DNA from: Kondoa subrosea
Taxonomy: Eukaryota
Length of the DNA stretch: 61,411 nucleotides
Assembly (NCBI GenBank): GCA_039545335.1
Contig: BCIN01000002.1
Span: forward strand, 3,068,678 to 3,130,088
Direction of reading: 5' to 3'
The notes under the pieces are model-generated. The model did not search any database, was not told the origin of the DNA, and saw only the letters and a list, made by a program, of their open reading frames with translations. Both the position numbers and the translations under genes were made by a program. The stretch's first letter is position 1. Each line of letters starts with the position of its first letter. Of the stretch, positions 42,795-61,411 are shown one piece after another.

Positions 42795-43315
42795 GACTGT
42801 CCGATTGAGAACTTGCTCCCGTCTCGCTCAACAACGCAACAAGACAAGAACTGCGCTGCGAGCCAAGAGCATAGTGAAGCATACTGTCTCATGGTCATAG
42901 TCTCTATTCACTTTCGGGATGTTAGCGAAGCCCTTTCCTCCTCTTCTGCTCCTACCGTGTTCCTGCCGAAATCGTAATTCGCGAGATGTGATTGACGACG
43001 ATTTGGCGAGTCGCCTATCTCGAAGACTGTACAGCTTCGCATGCGTTAAATCGATACAAAAGCAACCCAACCATTTCCAAAAGTCACGCTGATGCTCATA
43101 ATGATGCTCAACCATGTATCGTCGACTTGCACTGTATGCTTGTCAGCCCGACGAAACTAAGGAAGTCTTGTTTGTATTGTCAAATTATGTTACGACTTTA
43201 CAAAGACGCTTTCTCCCTTTCTACTCCTCGGTAACTACACCATGACTTATATACTAGATCAGTAGTGAACTCGGCCCGTCTCATGAGCTGTGGTATGAAG
43301 AATTGTTTGGGAGGT
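42795..43315 (-). pseudogene. Degenerate repeat copy X1 (frameshifted coding-like sequence, paralogous to 43907-44455)
   Basis: Shares blocks such as CTCCTCTTCTGCTCC, TGTACAGCTTCGC, AAATCGATACAAAAGCAA, ACCATGTATCGTCGA and CTTTACAAAGA with X2. The peptide CFCIDL.HAKLY.L is in both copies, with frameshifts and stops. Confidence 0.55.
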
Positions 43316-43701
43316 CTGGTCTGGAGCGATCTTGCGCTTTTCTCGTAGCATGCCATGCGGTACGTCCTGCTGTGCCCTTTCAAAGCTCACCCTGAGTGTA
43401 TTGCTGTGACATAGGACATTCACTTTACCGGATCGCGGGACCTTAGAGAAGCCAATGATCAGGCGATCTATGCGATTTCAGGCAAAGGCCGATGAACGAT
43501 GAACGAGGTTATCGATTGGCTTCGCAGTCAGCTATAGCCGACAACTACGGTACAAGAGTAACCCCTCGCCCCGCGCCAATCACCACGCCCTATCGGCGCA
43601 CCCATTCCTGGTTCATTTCGTACTTCCGGATAAACGCCGAGCGCGCTCTACAACAACATGGTATATCCAATGGATTGCACACTCAAAATCGCCTGTGCAT
43701 C

Positions 43702-43835
43702 GGCCGGATGGTGTAGTTGGTTATCACGTTTGCTTAACACGATGTTCGCAAAAGGTCAAGAGGTCAGTCGGACGTCAAGACTTCTCGGAACTTGGACTCA
43801 TCTCCCATCTATTAGATCGAGCCTCTTTCTGGTCA
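43702..43835 (+). tRNA. tRNA-Val(AAC) with a 7-nt anticodon-loop intron plus a 53-nt GT-AG spliceosomal-type intron (43763-43815) in the T-arm
   Basis: GGCCGGA TG GTG-TAGTTGGTTAT-CAC G TTTGC TT AAC A[CGATGTT]C GCAAA AGGTC AAGAG [GTCAGT...GACTCAT...TAG] ATCGAGC CTCTT TCTGGTC A. Exons are identical to the copy at 60368-60448. Confidence 0.85.
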
Positions 43836-43906
43836 ATTGATAACAAAGCAGCAGCTTGGGGCAGCGATCTGTGAGAATCCTTGCTATCGCGACCTCCTCG
43901 TATAAG

Positions 43907-44455
43907 AACCTATCTGATCGAGGTGAGCTTGCTCTCATATCGCTTCAACAATACAAAAGACTAGATGGTACATGTGCATCGCAAGATAAGAGCATCTGAA
44001 GCGTGCTGTCCCACGATCATCACCTTGATTCGCTCTCATCGGGGCAGCGAAGCTCTTTGCTCCTCTTCTGCTCCGATCGTTCTCCTCTCGAATACATACT
44101 TGCTATATGTTGTTGACGAGGATTGGTCAAGTTCCCTCCCTTGAAGATTGTACAGCTTCGCGTGTGCCAAATCGATACAAAAGCAATTCAACGATCTCCA
44201 GGGATCATCTCGAAGCTTCTTATTGATGCGCGACCATGTATCGTCGATGATTGTTCATGTATCGTCAATGTTTAATGTACGGTTGCCTGCCCATTGGGGC
44301 TAAGGAAGACTTATCTGCAATGTCAACTTTTGTTCCAGCTTTACAAAGATGCTTTCCTCCTCTTTACTGCTCAACAAATGCACTATGGCATTGCGTACCA
44401 GATCATTCATGAACTCAACTCTTCTCGAGAGCTTTTACATCAGGTATTGTTTGGT
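43907..44455 (-). pseudogene. Degenerate repeat copy X2 (paralog of 42795-43315)
   Basis: IDDTWSRINKKLRDDPWRSLNCFCIDLAHAKLYNLQGRELDQSSS, with in-frame stops upstream. Direct repeat of X1. Confidence 0.5.
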
Positions 44456-44580
44456 ACGCGCCATCATCTTATTGTCTTGTCTTCCTTCAGATCGAGCCTC
44501 TTTCCCGTCAAAGAGTCGATACTGAGAGTGATACAAATGCCTTGATTCCCCAATATGATGCCTGTCATGGCCTGTACATA

Positions 44581-45915
44581 CTACACTACGCCCTTGTATT
44601 CCTCTTCCACCTTTACAGCTCTATCTGTCGTGATCTCAATCTGATCCACGAAACTGATCCTGCTGACAATCATGGGAGTCGCCCCAGAGGATTGATTAGA
44701 ACGACCGTTCTTATGCTGCAGGGAGCTGCCAGGCAAATCTACGGTGATCACTCGTCTTGGCGCATCTGGATTCTGCGAAGCTTCCCTGAAAGTCAGGTTG
44801 ACCAGTAAAGTGTAGAGATAGCAACTTGGCAACAGGCGAGGAATAAGTTCGTAGGAGCTTCTGAAGCGTAGGTAGATAATTCTGGTGCAAAAAGACCATC
44901 GAGCTTAATAGGTGTGGGAGAGATGAAGGCGAAACTTACGTCGTCAGAATCACAAGTAGTGCTACCAGTCCGTTCGTCCGCACGAGGAGTAGCAGAAGCC
45001 TGTTTGGATTGAAATGACAAGCCTTGATCGGCTACCGTATGAGATGGGTACATACCGCTTCACCAGCCTTTATGCGGCAGAAGCATGAGCTTTGATGTCA
45101 GAAGTACAGGATTATAACCCTACCGTCCTATCTTTGGAGTCTTTCTATCTTGTGAAGTAGTTGTTTGGTGTATTGTCCAAAGCATAGCGCAAACTGTTTG
45201 AGCAGAAAGCTTCATCAGCCCGCTATCAAGCCCTGCCGCGAAAGCTTACCGATTATCACATCAATGGCTACCTGCACCACTATGCCTACTGTGAAGACGT
45301 CCAGCACCCACCTTGGCGGTTGTCCGGGCGGAACGAAACGAAGCATAATGCTATAGACTATACGCTCGAAGAATGAGCCAGCTGGGTACGGACAATCGAC
45401 GAGGCATACCGAGGAATATAACAACGCCGACAAATGCGAGACTTGCAACTATGACTGGCAGCACAAGGCGTCTTCGTGTTAGAAGATAGAGCTAAAGATT
45501 TGTCAGCCAGCCACTCTGTCCGCTTCTCAACTAGGCAACTCACTCTATGGCTGTAATATAATTGCACGACGAAAGCAATAGTCGCTATTGAGCAAAAGCA
45601 GAACATTGCAGCAAGTGAGTAGGAGGCTGAGTACGTCGGATTGCCCAGTAAAGCTTGATGATACCGCGTAATGATGACCGCAGCTACCGAACCGCCATGA
45701 AAAACATTGATGGCAGTAGCTACGACCACAAAGCCTGTCATTGAGGCATCTTAAATACAAGTTCAGCTGGAAAGTCCAATGGAATGACCTTTGAGTATCC
45801 ACGGATCTTGAGGAAACCTCGTCCAATACGACTGAGCTTGATGAAATGTATAGCCCGTCCCAACCAATGCAAAGATGTTGAAAGCGCAATTGGCTATTGT
45901 TATCGGTATATCCAT
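44581..45915 (-). CDS. DUF6534-family multi-pass membrane protein, copy A
   Basis: MDIPITIANCAFNIFALVGTGYTFHQAQSYWTRFPQDPWILK, FVVQLYYSHR, VAIDVII, CYLYTLLVNLTFRE. Resembles the basidiomycete DUF6534 pattern (FP.D...LK; Y..LL..L..R). Confidence 0.72.
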
Positions 45916-46992
45916 CGAGAGTCTGGGCAGTGTATTGTGATATGACAGTATGTGAAGAGCAGCATAGTCATCTGCTCCATAGCAAGTCGCATAGTAAACC
46001 TAAAAGCATCCGGAAATACATACATAACATTGAATCATAACATTGCGCACAACCGCAACAAAAGGAAGGTTTGTAAAGCTAATTCGAGCCACGCCGATCC
46101 CGATCGCGCCCAGCGGGAGACAGTCGGAGACTCTTGTCTGTACTGCTGAGCCTGCACACTTTGTGTAAGAAAATGGGCAGTTCTGTGAACCAACATCACT
46201 CTAATCTTTTCGCACTCCAAAAGGCATTAATACAGCTCAGCACCAAAGCAATCATCGTCAGAAGGGCAGGTGCACGTTATGACGGCAGAGTCGCAAGCAT
46301 GGCAAGCAAGAACCTATTCCAGCAAGTTAAAAGGCTGGACATGATGCGAAATTCAATTCGCAGAAATTGCATTATGTACGACTGAGGAGGTCGCTGAGGG
46401 ATAAGCAGACTTGGAGCAGAAACGAGCAACACATGGACCATGGTTAGACCAACGGAAAGATATGGTTTGAGACAGAGCCTAAGAACGAATATTAGTCAAA
46501 CTCGAATAGCAGCCCCCTGCAATACACGAGTCACAATACTGCCAACTAGTAATACACTCAGGAATGTCTTTGACATATGTGACATATGTCAAAAACATTT
46601 GCAAAAGCTACCATCAGAAGTCCTGAAGCCTGACAGGCGCCGAGGGAATAGAACAGAAGCAAGATGGCCTTCACATGACTGGTTGACAGCGCGGAGAGGA
46701 ACGATAAGGGGGGAACCAAATAAGGCCCTTGTCATTGGTCATGGGAGAGAATGCAATATTGTCGGAGCGAATCTCTTTCGCCTTTGCGCATGCAATTATT
46801 GGACATCGGATGTATTGAAACTCAGCGAGAAATGTCACCACAAAGCTTGGCCTAGTGCTTGCTTGGTACGCGCCATCATCTTATTGTCTCGTCTTCCTTC
46901 AGATCGAGCCTCTTTCCCGAAAACGAGTCGATACTGAGAGTGATACAAATGCCTTGATTCCCCAATATGATGCCTGCCATGGCCTGTACATA

Positions 46993-48325
46993 CTACACTA
47001 CGCCCTTGTATTCCTCTTCCACCTTTACAGCTCTATCTGTCGTGATCTCAATCTGATCCGCGAAACTGATCCTGCTGACAATCATCGGAGCGGCACCAAA
47101 AGACCGATTAGTGCGACCATTCTTATGTTGCATTGAGCTACTAGGCAATTCCACCGTGATCACTTGATTTGGCGCATCTGGATTCTGCGAAGCTTCTCTA
47201 AAAGTTAGATTGACCAACAAGGTGTAGAGATAGCAGCTCGGTATTAGGCGAGGAAGAAGTTCGTAGGAACTGCTGAAGCGTAAATTGACAATTCTGGTGC
47301 AGAAGAACAATCGAGCTCGATAGGTGTACTAGAAATCTAACCATAACTTACGTCGTCAGAATCACGAGTAGTGCTACCAGTCCATTTGTCCGCACAAGGA
47401 GTAGCAGAACCCTATTTGTATTGGATCGGTGAGCCTTAGATCAGCTCCGGTAGGAGATGGGTTCATACCGTTTCACCAGCCTGTACGTGACAAAACATTA
47501 GCTTTCATGTCAAGAGTAACGAATTATAATGCTTACCGTCCTATCTTTGGAGTCTTCCTATCTTGTGAAGTAGTTGTCCGATGTATCGTCCAAAGCATTG
47601 CACACACTATTTGGGCAGAAAGGTTGACCTAACATCCCGCTTTCAAAGACCATGCGTACCTATGATGACGTCTATCATAATTTCCGCAGTAACACCCACT
47701 GTGAAGACATCCAGCACCCAGGAAGGCGGTTCTCCGGAAGGAAGGAATCGAAGCATGATACTATAGGCTATATGCTCCAAGTATGAGCGAGCTGGCTAGC
47801 GACAATCGAGGAGGCATACCTAGCAATATAGCAGCGCCACTAAATGCGAGACTTGCTACTATGATTGGCAGTACAAGGCGTCTTCTTGTGAGAAGATAGA
47901 GCTGAATATTCGTCAATCAGTTACTTTATCCGCTTTCCAGCAAGGAGACCCACTCTATAGCTGTAATACAGTTGCACAACAAAAGAAATAGTCGCTATCG
48001 AGCAAAAACAAAACATTGCAGCAATTGAGTAGTAAGCTGAGTAGGCTGGATTGCCCAGTAAGGCTTGATGATACCGCGTGACGACCACCGCCGCTACCGA
48101 ACCGCCATGAAAAACATTGATAGCAGTAGCTACGACCACAAAGCCTGTCATTGAGGCATCTTAAATACAAGTTCAGCTGGAAAGTCCAATGGAATGACCT
48201 TTGAGTATCCACGGATCTTGAGGAAACCTCGTCCAATACGACTGAGCTTGATGAAATGTATAGCCCGTCCCAACCAAAGCAAAGATGTTAAAAGCGCAAT
48301 TGGCAACCGCTATCGGGGTATCCAT
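46993..48325 (-). CDS. DUF6534-family multi-pass membrane protein, copy B
   Basis: MDTPIAVANCAFNIFALVGTG.... Same exon structure as copy A and same C-terminus DRAVKVEEEYKGVV*. Confidence 0.72.
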
Positions 48326-49652
48326 TGAAACTCTGGGCAGAGTATTGCAGCGCTTGTCGATGTGATATAGCAGTATGTGAAGAGCCGCATAATTATCTCC
48401 TTCATGGCAAATCGCATAAGCAACCTAAAAGCGGCGGTCGGGATCCGAAACAATTCACAACCGTATCAAAAGGAAGGTTTATTGAGCCGCGCCGTTATCG
48501 CTCACGCGGCTAAACGAAGCCTCTCGTCTGCTGACTGTCCCTCACGCATCAGAACGGACGCTTCTGCAAATCAAGTTCATCAACATGGACTCGCAAATAA
48601 ACGGCAAAGCAATGATGCAATGCAGCCTCGAAGCGATCTTCACAAAAACGTTATGCGTATTACGTGGCAGCAGAGGATGCACGAAGCACGAGGACGGGCA
48701 ACAGAACATACCAACAAGCTGGAAGAGGCCGAGTGTGCAGAACTCAAAGACAGTCGAATCATGTAGCACAGAGAGGCTTGCTGAAGGGCAAGAAGAGTCA
48801 GGCCATTAAACAAGCACAGATGGAGGAAGACGGTGTAGCGCGCAAGATATGGTCAAAGATATGGTTTCCGATCAAGAGCCAATTACATTAGTCAGCACTT
48901 AAGTTCCCAATATATAGCAGCCTAGCTACACTACCCCGAGTCGCAATACTGCTAATATTATTACCTAATAGTGATTAATCCAGAAGTGTCCTTTGCGGTT
49001 GCGACAAGCTGCTGGTACAAGTCTGAAGCCTGATTACCGCCGAAGGTGAGGAACATAAAAGAAGCAAGATGAACTTCACATGAATTGACTGGCAGCGCGA
49101 TGAGGATCCATACCGGACAAAACAAGTAAGGCACTCGTCATTGTTCATGAGAGTGAATGCAATATCTTGTGAGTGAATCCCTTTCACCTTCGCGCATGCA
49201 ATTCTTCGCCGGATGTTCTGAAACCGAGCGAGATTGATAGAAGTAGGAGAGATGTCACCCCACAGCTTGACTTAGTGCTTGCCATGCATTCCGGCGACTA
49301 CAGCCATCATGAGGAATGCTGACATTGACACGCGTATTGTTGCAATGTTGCAAGCAGCGTGAGAAGGAGGAAAATATAAGTAGCACAGTTCTACAGTCAG
49401 GAACCGGACTGTCAGATCGCCGACAGAGTATGAAAGCAGGTCAGACAGAAAATCCCTGCGTCGCTTGAACAAGCTGAACAAACCCTATAGGACAGGCATA
49501 AAGGACATAGTAGACCAAGCAGTGATTTTGCGCATGCGCAAGAAGGGGCGAGCAGAAAAAGGACACAAAGCTGCGCCGCTGGCGTTCGACATGTCACAAG
49601 GCTTAATCGTGCAATGGCAAAAAGCGATAGCTAGCAATGCATACGCTCCGTT

Positions 49653-57577: not shown

Positions 57578-60147
57578 TCACCCAGCCAAAGATTTCCTCT
57601 GCAAATTCCTTCGAGCTCTTCTTTTAGCCGCACCAGCTCCTTCGCCCATTTCTAAAGTCAAGTAACTTACTTCTTCCCAGTCCAACCCGCATACGCCATC
57701 CGCTTCTCGACCGGAATCGATCTGTCTCTTGTCCAGCATACCAACTACTGGTAATTCGATTTCAGATTTGACGAGAATGATAGGGCGATTAAGTAATTCT
57801 AGAGGGATAGGGGTGAGAAGATGGAAAGAAGTAGCAGCTGGATCGATGGAGCGTATAAGGGCATAACCAATACAATGTGATTCTGAAGGCCGAGGTAGAG
57901 GCGCGAAAGGATCATAAGGGAAACCAGGTTGTCTTTCTTGTTCGGTATCAGATGTAAGGACAGCTACTAATGAACCGTTCAAGGCATAAGGAGCGTGTTC
58001 GTAAGCTACTTCTTCGGGGAAAATGTGGATGCTTTGTAGAGCTGAAGAAGTCCAATCTAACGCTAGAGGAAGTTTGCTGACTAGCGGAACATTGAAATCC
58101 CATGATCTTGTAGCTGGCTTTGAATACATGTAGCTCATCATCATGAGCGTTCTAGCATCAGCCGCTGTGATCTTGGAACTGCTTAGCACTTCGCTGATTG
58201 GTTCCAAGTGGTGAACTATTGGTTCGCTGGCATCGTCCAATTCGTAGGTGATAGCGGCATCGCCCATTTGCAAAATTACTGTAGGTTGAACGATGCGGTA
58301 AATCGAAAGCAAAAGATCGGCTCCGAGACCTGTTGCCCAGCCGTGAGTATTGACTACCAGAGGAATGATATCCGATCGTCTGACATCGGTTGCAGAGTCT
58401 TCTTCCGCCGGGTTCATCATTTTCTCCTGATAGTGAGAAAACAGATCTGCAATTGCACTTGTATACTGCTCTGGGTCAATAGCTGGTGAAGTTGAGCCAA
58501 TAAAGTGAGCTCGCGTAGGTGTTTTAGGATGGCAGATAGCTGGGCCAATGACGGGCTCAGAAAGAAGATGTAGGGAGACTTGGCCGCTAGGGGTGAATTC
58601 ACTCTGGCCAAGATCGCAGTCTAGCCAGGCCACTTGCTTGTACCTGTGTGAATGATAAGCATGCAATCCTCGAATGCATCGAGACGTCCACTAACGTAGC
58701 TAGTAGCCTATTGACTGCCATTTTCGCCAAAGTACTTTTGCCGGACTTCTTTGGGCCTCCAATAAAGCACACAAGACGACCGTCTTTCTCCTGGCCCAAG
58801 TTACGCAAAGCTTTTTCTTTTTGTTGACTTAGCAGCAGCCTTTTCATTCCTCTTGGCCCATAATCCAACAGCTGTGAATGCGATACAAGTTGAAAGCCAG
58901 TGCCATTACTTGCTGGTTCAGCTGAGGCGAGAGGAAAGAGTTGACCACTGCGTCCGAGCATACCAGATAATCGAGCTAGAGGAGCCATATCCTGTATGCC
59001 TGTTTGCAGCGGGTCGAGCAGAATGACAGCGCTGGAAGTAGGGATTGATGTACTTGATAGATCGAGATCTTGGAATAGCGATGAGAAAGATGTCGAATCA
59101 GGTGTTTCTGATTCAACAGGTGATATTGCAGGTAGAGGGTGACTTGATGGTGCATAAATAGGCACAGATGAGGAAGCGGACGTAAGGACGGATCCAGCGA
59201 CAGCAATTCGTCCTTTCAGCACTCTGAGTGTACAGCAGCCAGAAATTGTCATAGACTGCATCAAAATGTGAGCTGATTCTGGTAAAGTGTAGAAAACCGA
59301 CTTCTGTATTTCCTATTCCTAAGAGAAGCGATACACCTCCTTCTCCCTCTATCCGCATGACATTGCTTCCCAATTTCGCTGCAAAGGAAGGCTCAGGCGG
59401 CTCTATTTCGCGCTGGATCGTTGCATCCTCGACTGAGTCTATTGTCATATTTGCTGTCACATCTCCTGCTGGCTCGTCTAACGTAGCTTCAACAGTTTCG
59501 AGGTTGATTTCCTCCATCAGGACGTCCTGTGAGTTGTCTGGAAGGGAAGATTTCCCGCGCCGCGAGCTGGACCCTTGCATACGATCTGACACTGCTCCAT
59601 CAATGACTTCAGCCGGCGAAACATGACAGTTTGGCTCGGAGATAATTTCTAGTTCTTGACTGCTTTCATCTTCCGCTTGATTGGGTACATCAGTCTCGGT
59701 GCCAGCCTGGGACACTGGTTCTATCTGTTCAGTGGCTGGTAATTCGTCGGTTTTCCTCCTCTTATTGCGCCTAGGCTTGTCCTCTGATGCTGCAAAATAT
59801 CTATCACTCGCTTTCCCAGACTTTGCATCTTTTGATCCGCTTGAGCTCTTTCTTGGCTTGATTACGAGACTCTCATTCGATTCAGTAGGTGAAGGAGGAA
59901 GCGTCGGAGACTTAAGAGAGCGAGATTCGTAAGGCTTGACTACCAATGCAGTTGGCAAGATTTCAGGTTGCGCTTGTTGCTGCTGGCTTTGTTTCCTAGC
60001 TTGCAAAGCAGACATTTCCGTCTTGACAGGTCTCACATGCAGGACGCTTTGAGATACTTGAGGGACGGAAACATAGAAAGCAGGCGAAGAAGGTGGAACA
60101 GCAGATTTGCGTGTACTGCTGCGCTTGCGCTTGACTGGAGCAGACAT
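57578..60147 (-). CDS. GRC3: Polynucleotide 5'-hydroxyl kinase (Grc3/NOL9)
   Basis: Walker A GPKKSGKSTLAK, WLDCDLGQSEFTPSG, PLVVNTHGWATGLG, CIGYALIRSID..FHLLTPIP. Long disordered N-terminus. Confidence 0.92.
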
Positions 60148-60354
60148 ATCCTCTATCCAAGAAAGGTATGACACAGTCTGGTATATCAAGTACTCGCGGT
60201 TCGGAACAAGAGCTTACTTTTCTGCAATTACAGAGCAAAGTCAAATGCAATCATGGCTTAGATCGGTTACCCGGCGTTTAATCGATTAAGAGGGTTGGCA
60301 CATATTGCGAGCGTGAAGACCATTTTTGTCGTCTGTTTGATGCATGAAGGGCCC

Positions 60355-60365
60355 AAAAAAAAAAA
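60355..60365 (-). terminator. Oligo-dT RNA polymerase III terminator of tRNA-Val
   Basis: T11 begins 2 nt after the discriminator base on the minus strand. Confidence 0.85.
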
Positions 60366-60367
60366 TG

Positions 60368-60448
60368 TGACCAGAAAGAGGCTCGATCTCTTGACCTTTT
60401 GCGAACATCGTGTTAAGCAAACGTGATAACCAACTACACCATCCGGCC
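60368..60448 (-). tRNA. tRNA-Val(AAC) with only the 7-nt anticodon-loop intron, followed by a T11 Pol III terminator
   Basis: Full cloverleaf (74-nt mature sequence plus 7-nt intron). The T-run corresponds to A11 at 60355-60365 on the + strand. Confidence 0.93.
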
Positions 60449-60507
60449 GATGCACAGGCGATTTTGAGTGTGCAATGCATTGGATATACCATGTTGTTGT
60501 AGAGCGC

Positions 60508-61411
60508 TGTCCAGACCATCTCATAGATGAGCTGGAGCGGGCTGTAGTCAACATGATGTGGAAGAGAGGCAGACATGAGGTCTCATTGGACAGGCTTACC
60601 ACTCCAATGTCCTCAGGCGGTTTCGGCTTACTTCCCCTCAAGCGACAACTCTATGGCTCCAGAGGAGTGTGGATCTACTGGCTCTTATGCGATCCAGTGA
60701 TGTCTCAGGAACCGCATCTACTCACTATACGCAATCGATTGGTCAATGCAGTTGCAAAACAGCCAAGAACTTCTTCCGATGATCCTGGATACTTCTGGAA
60801 CTGGAGAGCTATCTTTTGCAACGCACCAGATGACAAGCGGGTCGCATGGGCAGTCGCAAGATCAAAGATGCGCAAACTCTTGTCGCCAATATGGCAAGAC
60901 TACCTAGAAGCCTGGGAGCTCGCAACATACCTCCCAAAAGACCTCAACTGGAGCGAAACCTTCTTATCCAAGCAAGTAGAAAGGAAGCAACACAACGCGT
61001 GGGGTTTTCTTACGATGGTGGACTCCAGCAATTTCCAACAAATAGGCGGAGATATCATTGCAGTAGCACAAGACGTAGTGAACCAGCGAAGGCAACATCA
61101 GCTCTTCAGGAAAACAATTCAACCGGAAGGCTGGAAGTCTCGTTTCCCAAATCTTATCCATGAACGATGGCAGAAAGCATGGACAACAACAGCTTTACTC
61201 GATCGAATTCTACCAGAAGAGGTCGACACAGCCCATCGCATATCTCTCGGCTCTCTACAACCACAATCCCGCAAGATTGAATGGAAGAATCATCGTCCAG
61301 TTGGCAATGATTCGCAGTGTTCTTTGTGCGGAGATATGGTCAGAGAAGATTTCGCTCACATCTTCTCGCATTGCACCACCTCAAAGGAAATATGGGCACT
61401 TGCTGGCCCAC
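60508..61411 (+). mobile_element. 5'-truncated non-LTR retrotransposon (L1/Tx1-like ORF2 C-terminal part); runs off the right edge of the window
   Basis: About 300 stop-free, intronless codons: CPDHLIDELERAVVNMMWKRGRHEVSLDRLTTPMSSGGFGLLPL (post-RT P...GG.GL motif) through to CSLCGDMVREDFAHIFSHCTTSKEIW (zf-RVT CCHC). Not in the ORF track because it has no stop inside the window. Confidence 0.9.

Follow-up and report, generated by a model that had tools for sequence, protein, structure and literature searches.

Probable targeting of tRNA upstream sites by an L1-type LINE family in the basidiomycete Kondoa subrosea, and a CRE-like retrotransposon in the L1 3' end

The closest described systems are the elements TRE5-A, TRE5-B and TRE5-C of Dictyostelium discoideum and NLTR-B of Polysphondylium pallidum, which are of L1 type, carry poly(A) and lie upstream of tRNA genes in opposite orientation (PMC5911963, PMC5006619). 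TRE5 sits about 44–54 bp and NLTR-B 39–64 bp upstream of the tRNA, according to the accessible parts of the same two papers (PMC5911963, PMC5006619). The accessible text of one of them reports TRE-like elements from dictyostelids only (PMC5006619), and that of the other, a 2018 review, lists tRNA-directed non-LTR elements for dictyostelid amoebae only (PMC5911963). Here we describe an L1-type LINE of the fungus Kondoa subrosea that shares these traits. It was found in a stretch of 61,411 nucleotides, referred to as the window (contig BCIN01000002.1, positions 3,068,678 to 3,130,088, forward strand), for which a first-pass annotation made from the sequence alone had reported an L1-type LINE beginning 59 bp upstream of a tRNA gene, head-to-head. 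The features of the locus and of its paralog are as follows.

57578..60148, minus strand: host gene encoding a Grc3/Nol9-like kinase (CLP1_P, E 6.7e-30, and NOL9_C; 5' extent from ORFs)
60355..60365, minus strand: oligo-T run after the tRNA-Val gene, a probable Pol III terminator judging by its sequence
60367..60448, minus strand: tRNA-Val(AAC) with a canonical 7-nt anticodon intron (ARAGORN with introns, score 101.5), its 5' end facing the LINE
60449..60507, no strand: 59-bp spacer from tRNA-Val +1 to the LINE, also present in the empty paralog
60498..60502, minus strand: upstream motif CTACA (YTACA) at -54, common to most tRNA genes examined
60505..60507, plus strand: left copy of the 3-bp target-site duplication CGC, with the second copy beyond the poly(A) tail outside the window; single in the empty paralog
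60508..61411, plus strand: 5'-truncated L1-type LINE, C-terminal part of ORF2 in open frame, extending beyond the window end
61288..61395, plus strand: zf-RVT (PF13966) CCHC zinc knuckle (E 2.3e-5; 25.4 bits, below the Pfam cut-off of 27.5)
43643..43652, no strand: empty paralogous target site with a single CGC and the YTACA motif (43648–43652), upstream of the second tRNA-Val gene
43702..43835, plus strand: second tRNA-Val(AAC), interrupted additionally by a 53-nt GT-AG insert at 43763–43815 (score 101.5 after in-silico removal of the insert)

The tRNA-Val gene at 60367–60448, which has two more copies in the genome, went undetected by intron-blind ARAGORN and by Rfam at gathering score, neither of which gave any tRNA in the window, because of introns and an odd T loop and not because tRNA genes are absent. 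Positions 60385–60507 align to 43643–43765 over 123 bp at 98% identity; the match ends at 60507, exactly where the annotation had placed the end of identity with the other tRNA locus, and the alignment to another LINE copy begins at 60508, so that 59 bp separate the tRNA +1 from the element. The ORF2 fragment, described in the annotation as stop-free with a GGFGL motif and a zf-RVT knuckle, indeed remains open to the window end, with GGFGL at 60616–60630 and the zf-RVT match just under the cut-off. This piece begins downstream of the reverse transcriptase (RT) core, which is present in the longest copy, on contig C4 (RVT_1, E 1.4e-8, with zf-RVT also present); the two are 96% identical and differ by 24 silent and 12 altered codons. 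Directly past the window lies a run of N. Further on, following the annotation's suggestion to read beyond the window, both a poly(A) tail and a target duplication were found: the flank beyond the tail continues exactly like the empty paralog at 43643, which identifies the duplication as CGC. The 5' piece in the window and the distant poly(A) end would thus form one insertion, linked across the N run by this duplication. The Grc3/Nol9-like gene lies downstream of tRNA-Val and is unaffected by the insertion.

The surroundings of the second Val gene are themselves repetitive: positions 42800–49200 hold sequence duplicated in tandem, repeating at about 1.1 and 2.4 kb (70–91% identity), and 830 bp upstream of this gene are duplicated again beyond the window LINE (86% identity over 830 bp). 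The two Val paralogs of the window differ by one 53-nt GT-AG insert, which suggests its recent gain or loss.

Relatives of the LINE were sought by protein comparison. Full-length ORF2 relatives at 33–59% identity carry PF03372, and those with names come from Microbotryum intermedium, M. silenes-dioicae and a Microbotryomycete; proteins of the clade include SCV69872.1, SCV71979.1, SGZ08700.1 and KAM0786553.1. The best PDB match of one full-length relative (P0002) was human L1 ORF2p (E 1.4e-38), with R2 at 1.6e-11. The annotation had called for an RT phylogeny: a FastTree analysis of RT regions (60 of 68, eight being dropped for short cover; midpoint root; no named TRE or Tx1 sequences included) grouped the L1 query with the named Microbotryomycete proteins at a support of 0.905. 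A genome search with a full-length relative for APE or ORF1 gave five matches, all from the RT onward. The poly(A) tail, 5' truncation and variable target duplication are all present, as in the L1 superfamily. A metagenome scan yielded eight loci, two of them close relatives without flanks and six distant, whose relaxed long-intron tRNA calls were treated as noise; the ESM Atlas returned generic RT clusters only.

Searches of the genome (18.9 Mb in 27 contigs, the single genome covered) used three queries: the piece in the window, the longest copy and a pattern for the 3' end. Nine loci were identified that contain L1 sequence and whose 5' flank can be read; they represent ten insertions, all standing copies rather than insertion events that were watched. 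Of 13 matches in one search, the remaining rows were parts of these loci or sequence of a second, CRE-like element. The count leaves out a tenth composite at the beginning of contig C9, whose tRNA side falls outside the contig. Each of the nine informative loci is situated upstream of a tRNA gene, with the L1 directed away from it, and the nine anticodons are all different. Their distances from the tRNA are as follows.

Val(AAC): 59 bp
Ala(CGC): 63 bp
Gly(CCC): 65 bp
Leu: 67–71 bp
Ser(TGA): 75–77 bp, two stacked copies
Arg(TCT): 77 bp
Asp(GTC): 130 bp
Ser(AGA): 128 bp, an old 75-bp fragment
Ser(CGA): about 215 bp, a decayed piece

At the two old fragments, Ser(AGA) and Ser(CGA), other sequence intervenes before the tRNA. 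The Leu tRNA is an Rfam match with an unstable ARAGORN isotype, read by eye as Leu(TAA), and the Ser(TGA), Ala, Gly and Ser(CGA) tRNAs were called only after in-silico removal of one to three GT-AG or GC-AG inserts of 50–58 nt. The same procedure gave a tRNA call in none of 266 control segments, a control that covers the first intron-removal rule, a wider intron rule having been used in later tRNA calling. In eight loci Rfam found two tRNA matches and no Pol III RNA of another kind. On the assumption of 300 tRNA genes, and allowing only a quarter of the genome, the chance of six such placements, the window locus excluded, is at most 3e-16 for a window of 55–135 bp chosen post hoc. The copies are thus not randomly placed with respect to tRNA genes, the outcome that the annotation had named as counting against its suspicion of a tRNA-targeting family, and the L1 family very probably targets tRNA upstream sites.

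A further repeat occupies such positions:

43479..43624, minus strand: repeat U, about 146 bp, found head-to-head upstream of tRNA genes genome-wide

The genome contains 24 matches to repeat U, whose far end is constant and whose near end is ragged; the 21 alignments that lie close to a called tRNA are without exception head-to-head, and four loci have no called tRNA. Repeat U shows no similarity to the ends of the L1 or the CRE-like element, and it may be SINE-like or the tail of an older LINE or other targeted element. Its tail consists of (GTTTCATC) units, and copies are stacked upstream of tRNA genes. Two loci carry repeat U and the upstream motif with no tRNA called and no Rfam match: near C9:365900 a tRNA-Arg(CCG) with a GT-AG insert can be read by eye, and the locus near C7:1122400 could represent a different Pol III gene or a relic. 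GT-AG inserts of 48–69 nt resembling mRNA introns were present in 18 of 30 called tRNA genes, Ala(CGC) having three. An ARAGORN call of tRNA-SeC at C2:2562326 was rejected, as by eye this is an elongator tRNA-Met with two introns. Unrelated to L1, CRE-like element and repeat U is a single RT frame of 545 aa at C5:1494693–1498133, Penelope-like by eye, beside an exonuclease-like frame.

A short motif precedes most tRNA genes. Among 30 tRNA genes called from retrieved loci, YTACA clusters at -54 to -71, and most tRNA genes have a fuller consensus, TGTCYTACA(A/G)A, between about -55 and -70. Within -75 to -50, a motif window chosen post hoc, YTACA was present at 15 of 20 L1-free tRNA genes chosen independently of the motif, against 5.2% of random places; many of these 20 were reached via repeat U and some are near-identical paralogs. 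It was also present in six of eight L1-occupied tRNA genes, and at Val(CAC) and iMet, called by Rfam only, the motif lies at -83 and -56. It is probably an upstream Pol III promoter element of the host. A search for SNAPC3, a candidate binder of the motif, gave no match, and its control likewise matched nowhere. The A box of many tRNA genes in this genome is split by an intron, and the motif hints at a Pol III element lying upstream.

The insertion site follows this motif closely. At the five loci with a readable target duplication, the left edge, which is the expected position of the first nick, lies 56, 59, 68, 72 and 124 bp from the tRNA and the motif ends at 53, 57, 67, 70 and 121, giving an edge 1–3 nt beyond the motif in every case (offsets 3, 2, 1, 2 and 3). 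The distance from the edge to the tRNA varies from 56 to 124 bp, and the edge stays with the displaced motif; the Asp and Leu loci have variant motifs that were identified after the fact, and in a different Asp gene a true YTACA stands at -141. As an observation on the tRNA-Asp genes themselves, all three have a conserved hairpin-like leader about 45 bp upstream and lack the motif at -60, and two of the three have the motif or a variant at -121 to -141, as if transcription began further upstream.

We propose that the L1 protein–RNA complex would be brought to the site by the Pol III machinery, either TFIIIB or a motif-bound factor, that the L1 endonuclease would then nick beside YTACA, and that the copy would be made by target-primed reverse transcription, always oriented away from the tRNA gene. 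We favour this combination of Pol III tethering and motif-guided cutting with moderate confidence. Pure sequence specificity as in the Tx1 clade, in which the endonuclease would read a longer motif with no Pol III factor and hit tRNA sites through conservation of the motif, is the strongest alternative and seems unlikely. It would account for a nick 1–3 nt from the motif in all five readable loci, even at -124 (Asp), and Tx1-type target choice is described as determined by the endonuclease in the accessible parts of one paper (PMC4494074). However, the flanks have only about 5–7 bases in common, with variants, and such words occur tens of thousands of times. For the 5-base form about 77,000 occurrences are expected in the genome, which means that sequence alone cannot yield the placement pattern. 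The exact 12-base motif is found at 15 genome sites against 16 for its control, with no enrichment, and as a predictor it led to a tRNA gene at two of eight new sites (61 and 150 bp away). Six of its 15 sites have no called tRNA and none of these six is among the L1 loci, a small number that nevertheless speaks against the alternative.

Random insertion with survival only upstream of tRNA genes, where a copy would be harmless in a gene-dense genome, is a much less probable explanation. The genome is compact and the same regions also gather repeat U and CRE copies, as it would lead one to expect; yet selection leaves unexplained the single orientation at nine of nine loci, the window of about 20 bp that holds six of them and the nick 1–3 nt from the motif. 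In addition, the window copy is identical to the C7 copy at 682 of 683 bases and to the C5 copy at 438 of 439, in line with the young insertion suspected at first, and identity above 99.7% among three copies leaves little time for purging by selection. The LINE family is supported by these sequences as recently active.

That segmental duplication or gene conversion multiplied one or a few old insertions, or that the junctions are assembly artefacts, is the least probable account and already largely refuted, for although the window Val locus itself lies within a duplication (86% over 830 bp) and runs of N occur at several loci, the loci have nine different anticodons, their truncation points and target duplications differ, the paralog at 43643 is empty, and 5' junctions at Val, Leu, Arg, Ser and Gly (Gly by nine letters only) recur in Logan contigs, which probably derive from the sample used for the assembly. 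The sequencing runs listed were two DNA runs of one sample, with no RNA run among them. The target duplications measure 3–9 bp (CGC, GCG and CGTTT, GAAACAGGC, GCATTT, CGCCGC), the right ends at Ala and Leu being unreadable in this respect. Among the Logan pieces listed there was no new 5' junction and the RT part had no cover; as a rough hint, contig depths of about 160–175 against 390–480 fit one plus three ORF2 tails.

The second element is unrelated to the L1 and was found at ten loci. It has a single ORF with RT and a CCHC/restriction-like endonuclease motif (a 968-aa frame, interrupted near its end by an insert) and falls into two subfamilies, A and B, with 74% protein identity. The only PDB matches of its protein were weak ones to R2 (E 2e-4), its RT being closer to R2 than to L1, and none of the 43 relatives found is informatively named. 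A relaxed form of the published CCHC-RH-E-RxD-D pattern matches subfamily B, with RHE in place of RHD/N; it had no match in the subfamily A translation used, where the later motifs are visible by eye.

At five of six visible L1 3' ends the CRE-like element follows in antisense orientation, with junctions that lie in GCTGAATAAATC-poly(A) and no more than 4 nt from a single site: subfamily A follows GCTGAAT or a close variant and subfamily B begins four bases further. The right ends of the composites retain the last C of the L1 or AATAAATC before poly(A) in five of six cases. At the window, Asp and C9 loci the left CRE junction is unreadable and the right end retains the last C of the L1 before poly(A). 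The junction occupies a constant position on the L1 and is between 0.1 and 2.5 kb away from the tRNA, which points to the L1 as the target. The 5' ends of the CRE copies all differ, and two loci have a repeat insertion with a duplicated target. One locus, on contig C6, lies outside any L1 with no tRNA called beside it, and another, a decayed piece, sits upstream of a tRNA at a distance of about 490 bp. Some CRE pieces, such as the long Ser copy without the terminal C, may have been carried inside L1 transcripts. At the Asp locus, the 5' part of the CRE copy is inverted, as expected from twin priming.

We hold with good confidence that this element targets the L1 3' end, the junctions being observed and the specificity of the enzyme deduced from them: the restriction-like endonuclease would recognise the L1 poly(A) signal and the element would insert antisense, arriving at the same harmless sites second-hand, as its target is the L1 end. 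Taken together, insertion of a basidiomycete L1-type family by target-primed reverse transcription at a defined tRNA-upstream site, with a CRE-like element targeting its poly(A) signal, appears likely. A broader proposal is more tentative and falls a little short of an even chance, namely that a Pucciniomycotina L1 lineage gained tRNA-upstream targeting independently of the TREs via an undescribed Pol III motif, together with a CRE-group specialist on the L1 poly(A) signal, in a three-step chain of host promoter, LINE and LINE-of-a-LINE. Motif and distance are uncoupled at the Asp genes, and the system therefore offers a natural test of LINE site-finding by Pol III factors or by DNA sequence. 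Gene insertion is a further field in which site-specific non-LTR elements with harmless multicopy targets are of interest, as tools.

Literature was searched in full text, as far as accessible and with Repbase and most subscription papers outside the scope, so that novelty is provisional; within it we found neither a fungal non-LTR element directed to tRNA genes nor a CRE-type element targeting a LINE 3' end. A fungal tRNA-directed LINE would, if true, be another convergent origin. The family may be independent of TRE5, to judge from host range. TRE5 elements depend on an intact B box, and their ORF1 protein binds TFIIIB. In placement the fungal L1 works like TRE5, a likeness of position and not an assignment to the TRE5 class. 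Its distances of 59–77 and 130 bp fall outside the main TRE5 window of about 44–54 bp, whereas six of them are within the wider range of 37–90 bp described for TRE5-A copies in the genome (PMC5006619). A fixed distance of 47 +/- 3 bp, probably set by the A box, is described for TRE5-A (PMC5391098), in contrast to the fungal nick, which tracks an upstream motif.

Among fungal elements, the LTR retrotransposons Ty1, Ty3, Tj1, Tca8 and Ylt1 are also directed upstream of Pol III genes (PMC5911963); unlike the L1 described here they use integrase and lie at other distances. Zorro3 of Candida albicans is likewise a fungal L1 with a poly(A) tail; according to the accessible text it targets poly(A) tracts and has no known preference for chromosomal regions, in contrast to the tRNA-upstream L1 (PMC7175516). 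The Tx1-clade elements Tx1L, Keno, Kibi and Koshi are APE-type LINEs with a fixed target, and Tx1L enters another transposon (PMC4494074). These elements are described from animal hosts and recognise a sequence inside a repeat or RNA gene, whereas the fungal L1 lies upstream of many tRNA genes with only a short motif in common. Dewa is a further target-specific member of that clade. The second element resembles Cnl1, MoTeR1, FoTeR, CRE1/2 and SLACS, which have one long ORF with RT and a CCHC plus restriction-like endonuclease motif (PMC12857005). Site specificity and tandem stacking, known from the CRE group, are found in it as well. The fungal members of that group reside at telomeres, whereas this one lies in the poly(A) signal of another retrotransposon, so that one site-specific retrotransposon would use the 3' end of another as its target.
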